Source: Escherichia phage F13. Taken from it: a stretch of 64,000 nucleotides of DNA. The notes under the pieces were generated by a model that saw nothing but the letters and a program-made list of their open reading frames with translations, was not told the DNA's origin and did no database searches. The stretch lies in the sequence record OP745617. One strand, given 5' to 3'. A program made the position numbers and the translations under genes. Of this stretch, positions 1 to 7,259 are shown one piece after another. Each line of letters starts with the position of its first letter. Position 1 is the first letter of the stretch.

Positions 1-102
1 GGACTCTCCAAAGAAGAGTTCAGCAGCATTGCCGAAGCAAAGGCATGGCTAAAGGCATTCTACAAGGCCAATCCTAAATTTTATCCAACTAAGGGTGCAT
101 AA
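1..102 (+). CDS. 3' end of upstream gene (partial, hypothetical protein)
   Basis: Open frame from window edge (…GLSKEEFSSIAEAKAWLKAFYKANPKFYPTKGA*) ending at TAA 100-102, overlapping ATG 102 of the next gene. Confidence 0.4.
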   Translation, partial: GLSKEEFSSIAEAKAWLKAFYKANPKFYPTKGA

Positions 103-320
103 TGACCGATAAACAATACGCAGTCGGGCAACGTGACATCGAGCAACTCGACGAGGGCGGTTATTATACACGCCACATCTATGCTATGACTCAAGAAGGA
201 CTTTACAGCAAGTCGGACATCGCCGCTGAACTGGCCCATCGCGACTTGCAAATTGATCTTCTCAAGATAGAAGTGCAGAACTTACGAAACACCCTGTTAA
301 ACACCTGGAGCTTAAAATGA
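102..320 (+). CDS. hypothetical protein (72 aa)
   Basis: ATG start overlapping upstream stop; stop overlaps next gene start (ATGA at 317-320), typical phage translational coupling. Confidence 0.5.
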   Translation: MTDKQYAVGQRDIEQLDEGGYYTRHIYAMTQEGLYSKSDIAAELAHRDLQIDLLKIEVQNLRNTLLNTWSLK

Positions 321-742
321 TACAGCGTTACGACCTGACATATGATGTGGCATCGGACGATTTCGCCGTCACTCCCGTTCCAGAAAGTCATGAAGGACGT
401 TTTGTTGCATATGAGGACTATGAATCACTGCTCAAGCTTAATGAGTCGCTAACAAAAGAGATTGAGCAATACCACGAGCGCATCAAAGTCGCTGAAGATG
501 TTATCAAGCTTTTTAGCGAGGCTGTTGAGAAATACAAGGAGCGCAACGTACCGATTAAGGAGGAAGCGTGGACCGTGTGGCTTGGTGGTGAGAATCCTGC
601 ACCTGGCGAGATTGTTGAATACAAGCTGCGCAATGGAGGTGATAAAGTATTGTCGAGACTTTCTGACCATCTTCACTGGGGTCATATAGGAGCACTCAAA
701 GGCAGCGACATCATTGCTTATCGGGTCGTTAAGGAGGGGTGA
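317..742 (+). CDS. hypothetical protein (141 aa)
   Basis: ORF coupled to neighbours by ATGA overlaps at both ends. Confidence 0.55.
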   Translation: MIQRYDLTYDVASDDFAVTPVPESHEGRFVAYEDYESLLKLNESLTKEIEQYHERIKVAEDVIKLFSEAVEKYKERNVPIKEEAWTVWLGGENPAPGEIVEYKLRNGGDKVLSRLSDHLHWGHIGALKGSDIIAYRVVKEG

Positions 743-1275
743 TGGGTAACGATGCAGGATGGGGCAAGCCGCGATACTCAAAACTTGCCCACTACTTTGA
801 CGACGGCGAGCAAATCAGCTTGTGCGGTAAATTCAACAAAGGCAATACAGAGTTGACCGATGCTCAAGAAATGGAATCAAGTCTGACAATTGGTGATTGC
901 TCTAAGTGCAGAAAGGCATTATATGAGTTATTGACTCTAAGGGGATTGAAAGCGGCAAAATCAAGGGATGAATGGGTCATCAACGTCTGTGAAGGGAATC
1001 CAGAATTGATGGATGAATTGCTGAAAACAGATGCCGTTAATGCCATTTTCAAAAGGCATTATAAAACTTGTATGCGTTACAAGATGAATGATGATATTAT
1101 TTTTATGGTATTATCTTATTCAAGGAGCACAATGGACGTCAAAAAGCTTCGACAATATCGCCACAAGGTCATGTGTGAATTGCGCCGTTTAGGAGTTATT
1201 GTGGATAATAATGTCATTAAAACGGAGTTAAAGAAGCGTGATAAAAGGAATGGTGACTGGAAGGTCAGCGGATAA
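739..1275 (+). CDS. hypothetical protein (178 aa), Cys pairs suggest possible zinc binding
   Basis: ORF with CGKF…CSKC spacing; last gene before the AT-rich element at 1.54-1.99 kb. Confidence 0.5.
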   Translation: MMGNDAGWGKPRYSKLAHYFDDGEQISLCGKFNKGNTELTDAQEMESSLTIGDCSKCRKALYELLTLRGLKAAKSRDEWVINVCEGNPELMDELLKTDAVNAIFKRHYKTCMRYKMNDDIIFMVLSYSRSTMDVKKLRQYRHKVMCELRRLGVIVDNNVIKTELKKRDKRNGDWKVSG

Positions 1276-1539
1276 ATAAACACTGTTTACGTGTTTTGAA
1301 GAATGGAATGTGTGCAATGGGTCGCTTTATGCGGCCTTTTGTCGTTTGGGTCATGTTTTGCTATGGAATAATTATGAGGTTGTGTTTTATTTATTAATTG
1401 TGCGGAAATATTTAGAAATATATATAAACAGGATTGTTAATATTTTAATAGTTTATGGCTATTGGTCCGTGGTGTTTGTTAGATTCTATCTATGGATTGG
1501 ATTTTCTTGGGTCGTGAAACGTGGTTTTGAACACATTTG

Positions 1540-1990
1540 ATACGCCTAAAATACGGTTAAAAATTAAGCGTATCATGGCTGCAGGCCGCGCCGTTCCTGG
1601 ATTCCTCTTTTCCAAATTGGTACACCCTTACGTCATGATACGTCATGGTTTTTTATCCGTATCAGTGTACAACCCTTGCCGCGCCTGGCTTGTACATTAA
1701 TCTTACGGATGATACGGATAAAACTGAGCATCGTTATATATAGAATTCGAAAAATTAATTAACTCCATTTTAAAAACATTTATATTAATTTTTTTCATAT
1801 CCTCATACTTATGTTAATTTATATATTTAACGTATCATCCGTAAGATATAAGTAAAAACAAAGACTTGCGGCAATACGGATGATACGTCATGATACGCTT
1901 CAACCAGCCAGCAGCGGCTAAGTCGTTGATTTGCATAACAAGCGGCAAAAGGGATGGATTTCTTTTATACGTATCAAACAGTACACCACG
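1540..1990. repeat. Composite element A: AT-rich core (about 1735-1830) flanked by inverted repeats aatcttacggatgatacgg (1699-1718) and ccgtatcatccgtaagat (1831-1847), plus extra GGATGATACG-type copies (1629-1665, 1873-1898)
   Basis: Read directly; homologous to element B at 18055-18345 (shared aatcttacggatgatacgga and tatata-gaattc-aaa-ttaatt core). Confidence 0.8.
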
Positions 1991-2062
1991 CACCACGGTC
2001 CGTTATCCATTCAGCAATATGATTTGTGTACGTTTATAGCCATAATGAACATCAATCTGCAC

Positions 2063-2091
2063 TTGAATATAATGTCCATCCATTGTATAAT
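2063..2091 (+). promoter_or_regulatory. sigma70-like promoter with extended -10 (TTGAAT-N17-TGTATAAT) upstream of the TerS-like gene
   Basis: Hexamers and spacing read from sequence; the transcribed leader would contain two AATTTGCACTATG motifs. Confidence 0.4.
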
Positions 2092-2111
2092 TCACACTAT
2101 TAATTTGCACT

Positions 2112-2600
2112 ATGGGATTTTGCACTATGAGTCAAGATTATGTAGCGATGCCTGAAGACTTTGAAGACCCGCGATTCGCAGAGCACAATCAGGCTTTATT
2201 CGATGAGTTCATTGACCTTGTTATTCAGGGTCATGACATGCGCGCAGCTTTTGCACTAGTATTTGGAATGGAAGTTGCAACGGATAACTACACTGGCCAG
2301 CGAATCCTTTGCACGCAACGCAATCCATACTACAAGATGCGCTTCAAAAAGCGTATGGAAGAGATGCCACTCAAGGATTTGTGGAGCGTAAAAGGTGCAA
2401 TTCACAATTTGGTTAAGCTTGTTCGTGATCCAGAAGTCGCGGCGTCAGCCAAGCTTAATGCTATTCGTGAACTGAATATCATCTACGGCATCACGATGAT
2501 TGATGAAAACGGCAATAGTAAAATGGGCCGTTCCATGGACGATTTCTACAAGGATTTTGGAGAGGCGGCCAAAGAAGGTGAGCAATTCTCCCGCCACTAG
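2112..2600 (+). CDS. terminase small subunit-like DNA-binding protein (possible start at 2127)
   Basis: About 160 aa; NQALFDEFIDLVIQGHDMRAAFALVFGM and C-terminal AKLNAIRELNIIYGI resemble TerS (Terminase_2-type) segments; recognised from memory only. Confidence 0.4.
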   Translation: MGFCTMSQDYVAMPEDFEDPRFAEHNQALFDEFIDLVIQGHDMRAAFALVFGMEVATDNYTGQRILCTQRNPYYKMRFKKRMEEMPLKDLWSVKGAIHNLVKLVRDPEVAASAKLNAIRELNIIYGITMIDENGNSKMGRSMDDFYKDFGEAAKEGEQFSRH

Positions 2601-2619
2601 CCAATTTGCACTATAAAAC

Positions 2620-2654
2620 GGCCCTAGAACACATTTTCTCCAATTCTAGGGCCA
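2620..2654. terminator. Hairpin between convergent genes: perfect 10-bp stem GGCCCTAGAA/TTCTAGGGCC, 15-nt loop
   Basis: Inverted repeat read from sequence; no strong T-run, so terminator function is inferred from position. Confidence 0.4.
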
Positions 2655-2714
2655 TCGGTAATACGACGGGGAAGGTTACAAACATAAACGCGTTAGAAAG
2701 TGTATTATTATAAG

Positions 2715-2978
2715 TCATCTTTTAGTCACCTTACGTAACAATTTACGACCTTCAACCGTCCAATCGAACGACTCCACCAGCAGATTCGCACTATAACCTA
2801 AGACGATGCGTCCCTTCTCGTTATCGACCCGCCAACAAGTCTCGAATAGCATTCGATTTGCACTATTAACTATTGCCGCAACTCGCGTAGGATAAGCGCA
2901 ATTTGAACTATGGTCGTAAAGGGATAAGGTGCGACCACTTCCGATGGACAACGTAGCGATGAGAATGAGCGTATTCAT
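2715..2978 (-). CDS. doubtful ORF (87 aa) overlapping three copies of the AATTTGCACTAT motif
   Basis: Has a possible GGTGG RBS, but the motif copies inside suggest the region may be regulatory rather than coding. Confidence 0.2.
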   Translation of the reverse strand: MNTLILIATLSIGSGRTLSLYDHSSNCAYPTRVAAIVNSANRMLFETCWRVDNEKGRIVLGYSANLLVESFDWTVEGRKLLRKVTKR

Positions 2979-3028
2979 AAGCCACCAATTTGCACTATGA
3001 AAAGCGACCCCGAAGGGCCGCCATTCGA

Positions 3029-3655
3029 TTAGATAATCTGGAAGGTATAGGATTTGTTGCCGAACTCAAAGTTCAAGCGCCCAGCTTCCTTAAGCTTCAT
3101 GCGGAAGCGAATGTGCTTGCTATCCGGCAAGCCCAGCACGGCGAACGCTACGCGGACCGATTTGAACTCGCCTACACCCTCGACCATAACGCCGTTACGG
3201 GTGAGACGCTTTTGCGCCACTTCCTTATTATCCCAACTTTTTGCAATACCTTCGCTATTCGAACGGCGATGGGAAGGAGTTCCATTTTGCACTACGCAAT
3301 TTGCACTATCGTTTAGACCGCTCTTAACGAAGGCTTCATACTCTTCGTCGGTCATCGCGTCGAGTTCTTCCTGGGTCGGCTCGGCCTTTTTAACGACCGC
3401 ACGCGCCTTATGCGTTTTTACATCGCTGGACACTTCCTCGCGCGACTTCGCTTCGGGGATGGGCGATTCGTTGGACGGCTCATCGAGCGCGTTTAAGGAC
3501 TCGATTAACGCGATTACGCGAGTCTCGGCGGTACGGCGGTCCGCAAATTTCTTAATCGGCTTCGAACCGGAATTTGCATTATAAAATGCAACGAGGTCGG
3601 CGGTCTTAGTTGCGATAACGTCGCCGCTAGTCGAGAAACGATTTAAGCTAACCAT
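3029..3655 (-). CDS. hypothetical protein (208 aa)
   Basis: AGGAG RBS upstream of ATG at 3655; contains two tandem motif copies on the opposite strand and the TTTGCATT-N4-AATGCAAA palindrome near its 5' end. Confidence 0.6.
   Translation of the reverse strand: MVSLNRFSTSGDVIATKTADLVAFYNANSGSKPIKKFADRRTAETRVIALIESLNALDEPSNESPIPEAKSREEVSSDVKTHKARAVVKKAEPTQEELDAMTDEEYEAFVKSGLNDSANCVVQNGTPSHRRSNSEGIAKSWDNKEVAQKRLTRNGVMVEGVGEFKSVRVAFAVLGLPDSKHIRFRMKLKEAGRLNFEFGNKSYTFQII
3573..3592. promoter_or_regulatory. Palindromic operator-like site TTTGCATT-ATAA-AATGCAAA
   Basis: Perfect 8-bp inverted arms with 4-bp spacer; a dyad version of the AATTTGCA motif. Confidence 0.35.
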
Positions 3656-3735
3656 AATGAACTCCTATTTGTTAGGGCGCTAGGCGCGAAAGAATTTTAT
3701 TAAAGCGCCGCGCACGACGCTCTAAAAATCCTCTC

Positions 3736-4020
3736 TTACGCTTCGACGAGGGAGAAGGTCTCAAATTCTTCTTCGCCCATAACGAGTAAGATGTTACCGA
3801 TTTCGACCGCTTCGAAGAAGTATCCGTTAACGTTTACTTCGAAGGCTTCGCGGTCCGATTCCGGTAACGCCGCGTAAAGTTTAAAAGCCTCGGCGACCGT
3901 TACCCCACCCGCCTCGATGGTCTGGTCTACGTTCGCGGCGTAGACTTCGGATAAAATTTGTTTTACGCCGTAGTTCTCGACGATAGCGTTACGGATGGAA
4001 GAAACGTTAAGAATAGCCAT
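3736..4020 (-). CDS. small early protein, paralog family member A (94 aa)
   Basis: AGGAG RBS; preceded on the minus strand by the conserved promoter/hairpin cassette; MAILNVSSIR…EVYAANVD…VNGYFFEAVEIG aligns with the 4958-5248 product. Confidence 0.6.
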   Translation of the reverse strand: MAILNVSSIRNAIVENYGVKQILSEVYAANVDQTIEAGGVTVAEAFKLYAALPESDREAFEVNVNGYFFEAVEIGNILLVMGEEEFETFSLVEA

Positions 4021-4088
4021 TTTAAACTCCTAGTTGGGAGAGGCGTTAACGACCTATTCGCTAACTCATCCCGTCCCGATATGAGTAC

Positions 4089-4116
4089 ATTATAATATAG
4101 TGTAGAAAAAAGTAAA
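4089..4116 (-). promoter_or_regulatory. sigma70-like promoter (TTTACT-N16-TATAAT) of the conserved early cassette, minus strand
   Basis: Reverse complement of 4021-4128 is nearly identical to the plus-strand cassettes at 4548-4655 and 4851-4957. Confidence 0.5.
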
Positions 4117-4160
4117 GCACTTTTTCGATAAAAATGCGATAAATTATTTTATCTTTTTTC

Positions 4161-4188
4161 TTTACTTCTTCGTACACTCGCGTATACT
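4161..4188 (+). promoter_or_regulatory. sigma70-like promoter (TTTACT-N16-TATACT), diverged copy of the early cassette, divergent to the minus promoter
   Basis: CTTTACTTCTTCGTACACT shared with the other cassettes; followed by a GGGC…GCCC hairpin and a GGGAG RBS. Confidence 0.45.
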
Positions 4189-4244
4189 TGTTTATATCGA
4201 GACGGGCGATGGCCCTTCCTTCTACTAGCATCGGGAGCTTTATT

Positions 4245-4547
4245 ATGACTACTTTAATCTCTTCCATCCTTACTTACGACGAAGACCGTTTAACCGTTCG
4301 CTCTCTTATCGCCGCCGTTAACGCCGAACTAGAATCTAGCGCCATTAAGGTCCGCGCGGTTGCCTTCGTCGGTCTTTCCTTCGACGATATCAAGTACGCC
4401 GAACGTAGCGCCATCCGCTTCGCGAAGACCGACGACGAAGCCGTTACCCTTATCGAGACGGTTACTCCGCGCGGCGAAACGTTAATTATCGTCGAGTATA
4501 TCGACGTAGAAGGCGATAAGGCTTATAAATATTTTATCGCAAAATAA
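4245..4547 (+). CDS. small early protein, paralog family member B (100 aa)
   Basis: ATG at 4245 with GGGAG RBS (the track's 4188 start is a TTG inside the -10 element); N-terminus MTTLISSI resembles the paralogs; 3' two-thirds lies in the tandem duplication. Confidence 0.6.
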   Translation: MTTLISSILTYDEDRLTVRSLIAAVNAELESSAIKVRAVAFVGLSFDDIKYAERSAIRFAKTDDEAVTLIETVTPRGETLIIVEYIDVEGDKAYKYFIAK

Positions 4548-4558
4548 CGAAAAAGTGC

Positions 4559-4587
4559 TTTACTTCTTAGTACACTAAGACTATAAT
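4559..4587 (+). promoter_or_regulatory. sigma70-like promoter TTTACT-N17-TATAAT (cassette copy 1)
   Basis: Near-consensus -10 and 17-bp spacer; followed by the 5' UTR hairpin at 4610-4630 and AGGAG at 4644-4648. Confidence 0.55.
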
Positions 4588-4609
4588 GTTTTATATCGAG
4601 AGGGGATGA

Positions 4610-4630
4610 GGTAGCGAATAGGTCGCTACC
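4610..4630 (+). ncRNA. Conserved 5' UTR stem-loop (GGTAGCGA-ATAGG-TCGCTACC)
   Basis: Perfect 8-bp stem; the minus-strand copy (GTTAGCGA/TCGTTAAC) keeps pairing through a compensatory U-A and a G-U wobble. Confidence 0.5.
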
Positions 4631-4655
4631 CTCCCGACTAACTAGGAGAATATTA

Positions 4656-4850
4656 CGCGCGGTTGCCTTCGTCGGTCTTTCCTTCGACGATATCAAGTAC
4701 GCCGAACGTAGCGCCATCCGCTTCGCGAAGACCGACGACGAAGCCGTTACCCTTATCGAGACGGTTACTCCGCGCGGCGAAACGTTAATTATCGTCGAGT
4801 ATATCGACGTAGAAGGCGATAAGGCTTATAAATATTTTATCGCAAAATAA
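4656..4850 (+). pseudogene. Duplicated 3' fragment of gene 4245-4547 lacking a start codon
   Basis: Second repeat unit encodes RAVAFVGLSF…KYFIAK in frame, but the position matching the ATG of gene 4958 reads ACG (4655-4657). Confidence 0.45.
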
Positions 4851-4861
4851 CGAAAAAGTGC

Positions 4862-4890
4862 TTTACTTCTTAGTACACTAAGACTATAAT
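4862..4890 (+). promoter_or_regulatory. sigma70-like promoter TTTACT-N17-TATAAT (cassette copy 2, drives gene 4958-5248)
   Basis: Identical to copy 1 (offset 303 bp); hairpin at 4913-4933, AGGAG at 4947-4951. Confidence 0.55.
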
Positions 4891-4957
4891 GTTTTATATC
4901 GAGAGGGGATGAGGTAGCGAATAGGTCGCTACCCTCCCGACTAACTAGGAGAATATT

Positions 4958-5248
4958 ATGATCACTTTATCCGCTATCCGTGCCGCTCGCGTCGAAACTT
5001 CCGAAAACTCTAACGTATTTGGCGAAACCTTAGAGAGCGTTTATCTCTCTAACGTTGACGCGATTATCGAGTCTATTTATGAGCCGATCAACTTCCTCGA
5101 CCTTTACAAGTATCGCGATGAGGACATCGTGTCCTACCGCGTAACGATTAACGGCTTCGTTTATACGATTACCGAAATCGGCGGCGAATATCTCGCTGTA
5201 CCGCAACTCGGCGGCGAAGTAACTTACTTTAAAATCGTAAGCCTTTAA
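4958..5248 (+). CDS. small early protein, paralog family member C (96 aa)
   Basis: ATG with AGGAG RBS; clear similarity to the 3736-4020 product (IR-A-VE, VY-NVD-IE, NG-xxE-EIG). Confidence 0.6.
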   Translation: MITLSAIRAARVETSENSNVFGETLESVYLSNVDAIIESIYEPINFLDLYKYRDEDIVSYRVTINGFVYTITEIGGEYLAVPQLGGEVTYFKIVSL

Positions 5249-5259
5249 GGAGAAGAAAA

Positions 5260-5469
5260 ATGATTAATATGAATAACTCTCTTAACGCGCGCGCCCATCG
5301 CACCGCCGTCATCGATATGTTCCGTGAGCTTAAGGACTTATGCGATAATATGAACGCGATGTTATCCATCGGCGGCTGGGGATACGAAGAAGAAGTTAAA
5401 TATGCGGTTATGCGTCGCCGTCGCGATAACGTCCTTGGGCAAATTAAACGCGCCGGATTATTCCTTTAA
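5260..5469 (+). CDS. hypothetical small protein (69 aa, basic)
   Basis: AAGGAG RBS 8 nt upstream of ATG; followed by an intrinsic terminator. Confidence 0.55.
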   Translation: MINMNNSLNARAHRTAVIDMFRELKDLCDNMNAMLSIGGWGYEEEVKYAVMRRRRDNVLGQIKRAGLFL

Positions 5470-5495
5470 TTATAATCAACCACCGTTACTAATAG

Positions 5496-5517
5496 GCCGC
5501 GCTTAGTCGCGGCTTTT
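5496..5517 (+). terminator. Rho-independent terminator (GCCGCG-cttagt-CGCGGC followed by TTTTCTT)
   Basis: GC stem plus T-run directly after stop of gene 5260-5469. Confidence 0.6.
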
Positions 5518-5638
5518 CTTCGTCCCTATCTCGGTGCGCTCCTACGCGAAAACTCCTTTATCCTTCCCTTCGTCGTCGCATAATCTTCGTCGATATGCGC
5601 CTTAGTTCGCATAACAGGTATTACGTTAAATGGAGAAC

Positions 5639-5715
5639 ATCGCGTAAGTCCTTGTTTTATATAGACACCTATATCGGACCGTTAGGGCGGGTCGCGTAAG
5701 TCGTTGTTTTATAAA
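5639..5715. repeat. Direct repeat pair (A/G)TCGCGTAAGTC(C/G)TTGTTTTATA (5639-5663 and 5691-5715)
   Basis: Two 25-nt near-identical copies 52 bp apart in a 700-bp ORF-free region. Confidence 0.6.
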
Positions 5716-5838
5716 GGCGCAAAACTTTCCCTTCGTTCCGAACTAAAACGAGGAATATGCCGACCCTTCGTCCGAAAATAGTACGCATGCGAAATTACAT
5801 GCATCTAGAATAATCCCCACAGATATTATCCTACACGC

Positions 5839-5903
5839 AATCATTCGCTTTCGAATCATTATGCTTCATATTATTATGCGTCGAATCATTCGCTTTCGAA
5901 TTG
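5839..5903. repeat. Direct repeat pair ATCATTCGCTTTCGAAT (5840-5856 and 5885-5901)
   Basis: Read directly; each unit contains a TTCGAA palindrome. Confidence 0.6.
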
Positions 5904-5991
5904 TAACGCTGGAAACTGTAACGGCGATTGATTATTGCGTTCGTGTGGTTTTTATGGCATGGGTCTTTTGGTGCGTTTTGCTACTTGATGG

Positions 5992-6103
5992 AATTTGCGG
6001 TACACTAATCAAAATACGACACATTTAGTCTACTAACTTTTCAAAGAAAAAGTCCTGGACAGTACCGTACTATTTTGTACCCACAGGAAATTTGCAGTAC
6101 ACT
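5992..6103 (+). repeat. Variant motif pair AATTTGC(G/A)GTACACT (5992-6006 and 6088-6103)
   Basis: Shares AATTTGC with the 2.1-3.6 kb motif family and GTACACT with the early promoter cassette. Confidence 0.5.
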
Positions 6104-6183
6104 CCTGCGCGCGGCAGGCAAAATAAAGGGCCGCACCAAGCGACCCACGATTCACGATTCACGGTTAAAGCAACATCCACCCA

Positions 6184-6564
6184 CTATTCACTCTTATGGG
6201 CATCACCAAATCCATCAGCAATCTGGCTGATCAACGACTCAATGGACACAGTTTTACCAATTGATCGAGCGGTTATGGCGAGCATATTATCAATCAAACC
6301 ATGATTGACACAATACTCTGGAGATTTAGAATCATCTTCAGAACAACCAAAAAGCTGGTCGCGCAGACTTTCAAGAGAACGCTCAATATTTTCCAACTTC
6401 TCTTCTAAATCGGATTGGCGACGTAAAACCCATGTTAAGTCTCGGTTGCCGACTTCCAACCCATCAGAATAGCAAGGTGGAGCGTCAATTTTGATGCTGG
6501 AACCAAAAGCAGTGCCGCTGCCTTTAGTATAAGTATGGCTCATAGAATCATTTTTATTTGACAT
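6184..6564 (-). CDS. hypothetical protein (126 aa from ATG 6564)
   Basis: Last gene of the minus-strand block; internal ATG with weak AAGG RBS chosen over the track start. Confidence 0.45.
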   Translation of the reverse strand: MSNKNDSMSHTYTKGSGTAFGSSIKIDAPPCYSDGLEVGNRDLTWVLRRQSDLEEKLENIERSLESLRDQLFGCSEDDSKSPEYCVNHGLIDNMLAITARSIGKTVSIESLISQIADGFGDAHKSE

Positions 6565-6661
6565 ATCATTACCTTTAATATTTGGGTGATTAACAATAAC
6601 TATAATAAAGCCGCATAGCGCGGCATTCAAATCGATTTATTAATTGTGACGATTGGATTCA

Positions 6662-6856
6662 TCAATCGATACCAACTGAGCCGATGTGCTGAAAGAACTC
6701 TGAATAAACTTCCTTCCAGTACTTACGCGCTGCTTTCTGGGCTTGTCCTTTGCGCTTGAAGCTTTTGCCTTGAAAGATGAAACGGTCGCTTGTCGCGCGA
6801 TACTCCACCACACCTTCCAGCCATTGTAAGAATGCTACTGATTCATTTTTATTCAT
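6662..6856 (-). CDS. hypothetical small basic protein (64 aa)
   Basis: GAGGT RBS 5 nt upstream of ATG. Confidence 0.5.
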   Translation of the reverse strand: MNKNESVAFLQWLEGVVEYRATSDRFIFQGKSFKRKGQAQKAARKYWKEVYSEFFQHIGSVGID

Positions 6857-6863
6857 TTCAACC

Positions 6864-7259
6864 TCAATATTTTAATAAGAAAGCACCCAACCAACTTTCC
6901 TCAACCTCGCGGCCAGTAGCCACACGGTCGGTCTTGGCTATGGGTCTGGATTCGCCGCAGGGCAACCCGTCTTGTAGTTGTGTACTATTGCCAATTCTCA
7001 CCAGAACCTTTCCATCAGGGTCGATATAAGCGCGACAACCCATGATTTCGAGTCGTTGTAGACACTGGCGAATCGTTTTCAGCTTCTCACCGGACCGGAT
7101 AGAGCGCGGTCGCGACCGCTGACCGTTCTTATTTACTGTACGCTTGAAGACCGGAATATCATTGGTGCGTTGCGGCTTGGGTCGGTAGTAGGCTTCTTCG
7201 CCAGGAGTCGCACCTGGCGTCAATTCGCGCTTGAGCGCCTTTTCAATATCAATGATCAT
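6864..7259 (-). CDS. hypothetical protein (131 aa from ATG 7259)
   Basis: Start placed at MIIDIEK, just downstream of the stop of the small upstream ORF (coupling); the track's N-terminal extension overlaps other ORFs. Confidence 0.45.
   Translation of the reverse strand: MIIDIEKALKRELTPGATPGEEAYYRPKPQRTNDIPVFKRTVNKNGQRSRPRSIRSGEKLKTIRQCLQRLEIMGCRAYIDPDGKVLVRIGNSTQLQDGLPCGESRPIAKTDRVATGREVEESWLGAFLLKY

Follow-up and report, generated by a model that had tools for sequence, protein, structure and literature searches.

Genes and terminators at the locus

The region 5470-6183 of the window (the whole stretch of 64,000 nt that was analysed) is where two convergent gene clusters end, each at an intrinsic terminator, with ~600 nt between the two. 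A gene for a 69-aa protein (5260-5469) with a match to a PHROG described as 'transcriptional regulator' is located directly upstream. The terminators are:

5494-5523, plus strand: intrinsic terminator that ends the plus-strand cluster inside the direct terminal repeat (DTR); stem 5494-5515 with 8 pairs (6 G-C) and a subsequent T-run
6118-6146, minus strand: intrinsic terminator that ends the minus-strand operon (tail-fibre-side genes); stem 6146-6128 with 7 pairs (6 G-C), then TTTATTTT

A terminator at the start of the region had been proposed in an earlier note on this DNA and was found as the first of these; its sequence (5494-5523) is invariant in all 16 aligned Wifcevirus phages. The minus-strand terminator was absent from the list in that note. 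In the 16-phage alignment, its GGGCCGC arm alone is invariant, and the other arm falls into the variable, poorly aligned section 6111-6183 (identity 0.834).

The region had also been described as free of ORFs of 60 aa or more. This is correct for ORFs wholly inside it; a 70-aa ORF with a TTG start (6092-6304) begins inside and is antisense to the first minus-strand gene. Among the ORFs of at least 20 aa in the region (14 listed, of which 13 were scored, one being outside the filter), no coding signature in the form of excess third-position variation was found, and variable sites are evenly spread over the codon positions. Of 15 relatives, none has an intact copy of the largest internal ORF (5861-6028, 55 aa), part of which is annotated as SP13_010. 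Several small 'hypothetical protein' annotations in this gene-free stretch look spurious.

The phage and its direct terminal repeat

Escherichia phage vB_EcoM_SP13 (OP352608) matches positions 4800-7000 of the window almost perfectly (reported identity 100.0% over 2201 nt), the DTR boundary having an indel of one base; identity to 27 other Wifcevirus records is 91-96%. The source phage is a Wifcevirus, a myovirus of the family Lindbergviridae, and is almost identical to SP13. Compared to the SP13 record, the window has a different order of sequences. Its positions 1-1766 correspond to record positions 66719-68485, which are the unique right end, and record position 1 is window position 1767. 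The first 3899 bp of the SP13 record equal its last 3899 bp without a mismatch and thus represent a DTR, the end of which maps to window position 5968. The layout of the window reads like that of a concatemer junction with one DTR copy:

1767-5968, no strand: DTR of 4202 bp, single copy in the window, placed by mapping onto the SP13 ends
5968/5969, no strand: right DTR boundary, where the packaged genome physically ends on the right; ...GGCATGGGTCTTT to the left and TGGTGCGTTTTG... to the right

The DTR of the window has a length of 4202 bp because of an internal 303-bp tandem duplication (4353-4655 is exactly repeated as 4656-4958), which was not found in any GenBank phage record. At least eight genes are contained in these ~4 kb, namely a gene for a homologue of the small terminase subunit TerS (2127-2600; E=7e-34 to the E217 TerS structure 7UXE) and small early-type genes which, according to a promoter scan, are driven by sigma-70-like promoters. 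In searches with the DTR proteins, matches to PHROGs were to function-unknown families only, and no Pfam match was obtained. Because the DTR extends from 1767 to 5968, the gene-free region straddles its right boundary, with 499 nt inside the DTR (5470-5968) and 215 nt outside (5969-6183).

Conservation and repeats of the gene-free region

The non-coding sequence 5521-6110 shows 95.5% identity to 15 Wifcevirus relatives, compared to 86.8% for the third codon positions of the flanking genes in the same number of relatives, which indicates constraint on the region. For the final 58 nt of the DTR, the identity is 98%. As judged from these alignments, the non-coding block is under purifying selection, with a constraint similar to that of first and second codon positions. 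It carries the following elements:

5518-5773 (starts 5518, 5568, 5585, 5731, 5766), plus strand: five copies of (C/T)CTTCGT(C/T), three of which are CCCTTCGT
5640-5664 and 5692-5716, plus strand: 25-nt direct repeats (extended 22-mers), 92% identical, starts 52 nt apart
5839-5941, plus strand: degenerate tandem array based on AATCATT, with a period of ~15 nt (unit starts 5839, 5854, 5870, 5884, 5899, 5913, 5927)
5940-6011, plus strand: terminus core of 72 nt, conserved in Wifcevirus, Kylevirus, and Myosmarvirus; spans the DTR boundary and is the sole full-length copy in the window
5976-6008, plus strand: first copy of a ~31-nt element, TTTTG-TAC-N5-GGAATTTGC-R-GTACACT, with GTACACTAA at 6000-6008 (start at +32 from the cut)
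6072-6105, plus strand: second copy of the ~31-nt element, with GTACACT at 6097-6103 (+129); partial profile match
6146-6163, no strand: heptamer tandem of CACGATT, 2.6 copies (TRF), just upstream of the minus-strand terminator on the minus strand

The four sets of repeats listed in the earlier note were all recovered by sequence search where it had placed them. By k-mer enrichment, CTTCGT occurs five times (0.28 expected, P=1e-5) and CCCTTCGT three times (0.009 expected). For the pair of 22-mers, TCGCGTAAGTC(C/G)TTGTTTTATA, at 5640-5661 and 5692-5713, zero chance matches are expected even if three mismatches are permitted. The block of the 25-nt repeats is the most conserved sub-block within the genus (identity 0.98 to the 15 relatives). 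These repeats have no counterpart in the phages Kyle or PA1 and are Wifcevirus-specific, as is the inner block 5521-5830 as a whole. Weaker relatives occur near the left DTR end (1855-1871, minus strand; 1916-1932, plus strand). The 25-nt repeats were also considered as sigma-70 promoters, and this was rejected because a promoter scan and inspection revealed no usable -35/-10 hexamers.

A pair of 17-mers, ATCATTCGCTTTCGAAT, is found at 5840-5856 and 5885-5901 (0.29 expected; 3 of 100 shuffles reach two matches). It sits in 43-nt units (5823-5865 and 5868-5910) and is included in the AATCATT array. TRF reports this array as 5839-5901 with a period of 15 and 4.2 copies, and of the seven units, the last three were placed by visual inspection. 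From the end of the array to the terminus, the distance is 27 nt. Kylevirus PA1 has a comparable 15-nt array, AATGATTAGCCGACT, and Kyle has clusters of AATGATT/AATCATT, so that periodic arrays of AATCATT/AATGATT are present on the DTR side in two genera.

The motif AATTTGC(G/A)GTACACT occurs at 5992-6006 and 6089-6103. Taken alone, this mismatched 15-mer pair is not significant; it is, however, part of the ~31-nt repeat, which is conserved across genera, and second copies of this element are also present in MyoSmar, Kyle, and PA1. Short repeats therefore flank the fixed cut on both sides, with the 15-nt array on the DTR side and GTACACT at +32 and +129 on the unique side. The heptamer tandem accounts for the two copies of ACGATTC in the earlier note; its copy number varies among the phages, and Mansfield has ~7 copies of ACCCACG at the same place. 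Bas100 is a natural variant which is devoid of one 45-nt unit. The variants Bas100 and Mansfield indicate some tolerance of changes in repeat number.

The right DTR boundary in related phages

An identical DTR end sequence (...GGCATGGGTCTTT followed by TGGTGCG) is found in SP13, WFH, Mansfield, and Ro157lw, at the position homologous to the boundary in the window. In SP13, WFH, Kyle, and MyoSmar, the boundary falls into one alignment column. Altogether, six DTR ends, which are deposited or PhageTerm-derived, agree with the boundary in the window. The Mansfield ends were obtained by PhageTerm read analysis (PMC6753283), and the record has repeat_region 1-3673. For WFC and WFH, a terminal repeat of ~3.7 kb has been reported (PMC6563267). 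The WFC record is an exception, having its DTR end 81 bp further right, so that the first GTACACT copy would fall inside the repeat. For SP13, Ro157lw, and Kyle, it is possible that the deposited ends were modelled on earlier records and not measured independently. The DTR and its length in relatives were thus already known. The records of the relatives and the associated papers (PMC6753283, PMC6563267) give the repeat length alone, and these papers mention neither the core nor the periodic array nor the register across genera.

Two phages from other genera carry related termini. Pantoea phage Kyle has a DTR of 3603 bp and a TerS with 43% sequence identity. Serratia phage MyoSmar, the record of which is oppositely oriented, has a DTR of 3559 bp (PhageTerm) and a TerS with 36% sequence identity. 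Common to both is the synteny, with a TerS homologue near the left DTR end, then small genes, and then the minus-strand operon. The heptamer TGGTGCG is at +1 in two genera (Wifcevirus and, as seen in MyoSmar, Myosmarvirus), and Kyle has the related GACCGCG at +1. In each of the genera Wifcevirus, Kylevirus, and Myosmarvirus, GTACACTAA begins at +32 or +33; the start of GTACAC is at +32 in MyoSmar and at +33 in Kyle.

A cross-genus profile of the terminus core matches the window at 5940-6011 with E=1.8e-18, a match which exists by construction, as do those to most of the scored relatives, because these sequences were in the training set. Independent matches to the profile are those to ECML-117, WFC, one UViG, and a second Myosmarvirus contig; the pairwise match to Kyle has E=4e-5. 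A partial second match in the window (6071-6103) has E=0.15. A TerS-anchored search of IMG/VR returned 29 loci, with the core only in genera already known to carry it. Apart from one additional contig and isolated chance matches, scans of IMG/VR with the 22-nt repeat and the boundary sequence returned only Wifcevirus genomes that were already known; the matches listed for GAAATT-N3-5-GTACACTAA were to unrelated contigs and uninformative.

A profile search of 62.2 kb of the 65.8-kb PB1 genome yielded nothing better than E=0.87, nor did a search of the sequences around TerS in PS44 and Maja. Pbunavirus, the genus of PB1, uses headful packaging and has permuted ends (PMC12390725). Among these phages, the core is tied to the packaging mode, being present in the three genera with deposited or PhageTerm-derived DTRs and not found in the searched 62.2 kb of the headful phage PB1.

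The flanks of the left DTR boundary (1766/1767) are quite different, consisting of an AT-rich palindrome and TGATACG inverted repeats. Since the flanks differ, there is no single recognition rule for both ends. A motif common to both DTR boundaries was sought and discarded; the matches were weak, and the right-end core profile has no copy near 1767.

A candidate signal for the right genome end

The ORF-free stretch is the junction between DTR and unique DNA, and the conserved DNA found there probably represents cis signals for the right genome end. We favour this packaging reading because the register between motifs and end is fixed in three genera, because a TerS homologue is encoded in the DTR, and because the core was not found in PB1. 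In the best-supported version, the cis signal would be the part from ~5839 to 6105, and it would act by terminase cleavage or by nicking that primes duplication of the DTR. The interpretation in the earlier note (small RNAs, a regulatory hub, or a replication or recombination site) is retained insofar as a cis-acting site at the DNA level is indicated, although a specific one, the right DTR boundary; as detailed below, the small-RNA reading is unsupported and the origin reading is disfavoured.

The proposed course of events is as follows. Replicating concatemers would carry one DTR copy per junction. As virions have a DTR at both ends, the packaging machinery would have to cut or nick exactly at 5968/5969. 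This machinery would consist of the large terminase and the TerS encoded at 2127-2600. The 72-nt core is the proposed cleavage and recognition site, made up of TTCGTGTGG, the cut, TGGTGCG at +1, and, near +32, GAATTT-N4-GTACACTAA. Proteins may bind on either flank, to the AATCATT array in the DTR and to the second GTACACT element in the unique DNA, and thereby position or bend the DNA. Binding of the motifs by the terminase or TerS, and cutting directed by them, are what we infer from this arrangement. Against the packaging reading, the TerS of phage E217, a relative, did not appreciably bind DNA in vitro (PMC9611059). Also against it are the WFC record with its shifted DTR end, the different flanks of the left boundary, and the occurrence of GTACACT in early promoters, by which the motif could belong to a transcription regulator. 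This model does not cover the inner block 5521-5830, which carries the 25-nt and CCCTTCGT repeats and may have another role, for example in regulation or DNA entry.

Alternative explanations

The GTACACT elements, and perhaps other repeats, might instead be operators of a phage transcription regulator, which would make the region a regulatory hub that lies beside the terminus and is unrelated to packaging. Six of the seven exact GTACACT sites in the 64 kb fall between 1660 and 6100. Three of them have a fixed place in the spacer of early sigma-70-like promoters (4172, 4570, 4873), which have the structure TTTACT-N5-GTACACT-N4-5-TATAAT, and one promoter site (4565-4578) is a perfect dyad, CTTAGT-AC-ACTAAG. 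Kylevirus PA1 shows the same promoter design with GTACACT in the spacer, and a possible regulator is encoded directly upstream of the region (the 69-aa protein mentioned above). Sequence inspection shows, however, that the boundary copies of GTACACT have neither -35/-10 hexamers nor a dyad partner, and on the former ground these copies were rejected as sigma-70 promoters themselves. They keep a fixed distance to the terminus in three genera (+32/+33), and an operator in a promoter would not need such a constant spacing. Of the 16 aligned Wifcevirus phages, 11 lack the gene for the 69-aa protein (5260-5469), whereas the motifs are kept in all 16; because the repeats persist without the gene, this protein was also rejected as their general binder. 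We thus consider it unlikely that the boundary elements are operators.

A second alternative to the packaging reading is an injection-stop region as in phage T5, where entry of the DNA would pause at the repeat block and the genes of the terminal repeat would be expressed first. Repeat Region 3 of T5 is a 1.2-kb untranslated, repeat-rich, and highly conserved region, mostly in the left terminal repeat, which overruns into unique DNA by 270 bp and has elements at a spacing of 52 bp (bioRxiv 10.1101/866236). The layout in the window is similar, with an untranslated repeat block which is mostly in the DTR (499 nt) and overruns it by 215 nt, with 25-nt repeats starting 52 nt apart like the T5 elements, and with sigma-70-like promoters for the small DTR genes. 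Set against this, there is no DnaA box (TTWTNCACA, at most one mismatch) between 5277 and 6698, and A1/A2-like proteins were not detectable among the DTR proteins by comparison to PHROG and Pfam. A late function, TerS, is likewise encoded in the DTR, and a two-step transfer has never been reported for Wifcevirus-type phages. An injection stop is therefore quite improbable.

The direct repeats of 17-25 nt, spaced by 45 and 52 nt in a conserved, non-coding block, would also suit a replication origin of the iteron type. An AT-rich unwinding region is lacking, with the GC content of 100-nt windows ranging from 0.35 to 0.53 compared to 0.22 at the left boundary, and the interval 5277-6698 has no DnaA-box-like site. 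The minimum of the cumulative GC skew is near 12-14 kb rather than in the region, and transcription converges on the region instead of diverging from it. An origin at this place is thus very unlikely.

The stretch between the terminators might also encode small non-coding RNAs, one or several, but this is highly improbable. The region is conserved and non-coding, and there are weak promoter-like hexamers on the minus strand (5960-5931, 5899-5870, 5854-5825), but the Rfam scan proposed as a check in the earlier note gave nothing at gathering thresholds in the whole window and, for 5300-6400 at E up to 10, a best match at chance level (E=1.9), folding of 5518-5830 on both strands is no better than for shuffled sequences (z-scores -0.84 and -0.37), the sole internal terminator-like hairpin (5804-5783, minus strand) is disrupted in most relatives, and conservation across genera is centred on the DNA end and not on a foldable unit. 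A search with ARAGORN for tRNAs, which the earlier note had also suggested, found none.

Comparison with known systems

In SPP1 (pacL-pacC-pacR) and lambda (cosQ-cosN-cosB), a defined cleavage point is located between short repeated binding sites of the small terminase. The candidate signal described here would resemble these in having motifs on both sides of the cut, with the AATCATT array on one side and the two GTACACT elements on the other. In sequence, it is similar to neither SPP1 nor lambda, and the end is the border of a direct repeat of 3.5-4.2 kb rather than a cohesive end or a first headful cut. Moreover, unlike those of SPP1 and lambda, the motifs are candidate sites, read from the sequence, and the homologous TerS from E217 did not bind DNA in vitro.

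T7 and T3 have exact terminal repeats, of which one copy per concatemer junction is duplicated in packaging, and short tandem arrays beside the repeat border. By analogy, the exact DTR, the single copy at the presumed junction, and the short tandem arrays adjoining the repeat border would make the present system T7-like. In contrast to the repeat of T7, which is non-coding and has 160 bp, the DTR has ~4 kb and at least eight genes. The motifs are unrelated to those of T7 and T3, and the phage is a myovirus with a separate TerS gene inside the repeat.

With Repeat Region 3 of T5, the region has in common a long, untranslated, and conserved repeat block which overruns the terminal repeat, and the 52-bp element spacing. 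It differs in length (0.7 kb compared to 1.2 kb), in the absence of DnaA boxes, and in the absence of recognisable A1/A2 genes.

Implications

To our knowledge, how ends are defined and duplicated in phages with long DTRs is poorly understood outside of T7 and T3. The combination of TTCGTGTGG, the cut, TGGTGCG, and GAATTT-N4-GTACACTAA with the AATCATT array might be an end-defining signal which has not been described previously. It would specify exact multi-kb DTRs in one branch of the Lindbergviridae (Wifcevirus, Kylevirus, Myosmarvirus), while the sister genus Pbunavirus, with a homologous TerS, uses headful packaging. The period of the array might then reflect DNA wrapped around a decameric TerS ring, with one motif per subunit. 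We put this forward tentatively, as a possibility that we currently hold to be less than probable.

Being compact, conserved, and constant in its distance from the cut, the element is a concrete target for footprinting and mutagenesis. The ends at 1767 and 5968 matter for the correct orientation and annotation of the genome, and also if Wifcevirus phages, as candidate agents against E. coli O157 and Shigella, are to be rebooted or engineered. With respect to the biology of the family, these phages offer a natural comparison, as homologous small terminases are associated with exact ends in the enterobacterial genera and with headful packaging in Pbunavirus.

Sequence of the genome ends

At the right boundary of the direct terminal repeat (DTR), which is the genome end at window position 5968|5969, four T residues (GGGTCTTTTGGTGCG, window 5965-5969) are present in the window and in every other aligned Wifcevirus. 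The left DTR copy in the GenBank record of the near-identical phage SP13 has five T at this boundary (OP352608.1, 3896-3901) rather than the four found elsewhere. The fifth T may have been introduced artificially when the repeat was appended to the record. Another discrepancy concerns phage WFC (MK373777.1, 3700-3790), for which a DTR of 3784 bp is recorded. It ends 81 bp past the boundary common to the four remaining Wifcevirus records that include genome ends. The WFC repeat stops at ...TTTTCAAAGAAA|AAGTCC and therefore contains the first GTACACT element (window 5976-6008).

In inverted orientation, the sequence which spans the terminus (5960-5975, TGGGTCTTTTGGTGCG) matches the stem of the minus-operon terminator (6132-6147, CGCACCAAGCGACCCA) at 88%. 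The terminus sequence is also similar to the terminator at 1319-1337 (GGGTCGCTTTATGCGGCC). A further similarity connects 1346-1372 (GGGTCATGTTTTGCTATGGAAT) with 5962-5993. These likenesses may have been left behind when a sequence was duplicated or when the boundary moved.

The left genome end (1766|1767) lies within a palindromic stretch (1750-1793; GC content 22%) and is flanked by inverted repeats of 27 nt (1690-1716 and 1831-1857). Motifs of the TGATACG type are numerous around it in both orientations (1650-1900). Just outside this boundary, Wifcevirus phages carry three unrelated sequence types, whereas the DTR side is conserved. Like the right boundary, the left one thus lies in an ORF-poor region, here about 800 nt long, but its motifs are unlike those of the right end.

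Weaker relatives of the core (GCGnAAGTCnTTGTTTT) of the 25-nt repeats are located within the DTR, 90-165 nt from its left end:

1855-1871 (-), weaker relative of the 25-nt repeat core
1916-1932 (+), weaker relative of the 25-nt repeat core

One of the two is inverted, and they are highly conserved within Wifcevirus. There are thus about four such sites per DTR, two near each end.

Length variation in and next to the DTR

Differences in DTR length among the aligned Wifcevirus phages are partly due to the presence or absence of an accessory gene (5260-5469, 69 aa). This gene, whose product hits the "transcriptional regulator" family phrog_10377 with E=2e-36, occurs in 5 of 16 aligned phages and is cleanly missing in the others. 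Repeat arrays show natural length variants as well. In Bas100 (about 4990-5000), precisely one AATCATT unit of 45 nt is missing (window 5839-5883). At the site of the window's CACGATT x2.6 repeat, Mansfield (about 3860-3900) instead carries approximately seven ACCCACG heptamers in tandem.

The window carries an exact tandem duplication of 303 bp (4353-4655 and 4656-4958, 0 mismatches), which was not found in SP13 or in any of the other GenBank phage records searched. The duplication could be genuine variation or an error of assembly. It copies the 3' portion of one gene (4209-4547) together with the strong promoter (TTTACT-17-TATAAT, at 4559-4587 and 4862-4890) that lies upstream of another (4958-5248).

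Early-type promoters

Both promoter copies belong to a set of early-type, sigma-70-like promoters which share their spacer and start region:

4089-4116 (-), early-type promoter
4161-4188 (+), early-type promoter
4559-4587 (+), early-type promoter
4862-4890 (+), early-type promoter

The spacer and start region are unusually conserved (TTTACT-TCTTn-GTACACT-n4-5-TATAAT-GTTTTATATCGAG), with CTACACT in the minus-strand copy (4089-4116). The promoter at 4559-4587 includes a perfect dyad, CTTAGT-AC-ACTAAG (4565-4578). The same design is present in Kylevirus PA1 (about 4060-4100). This conserved arrangement suggests either an operator or a distinct class of promoter.
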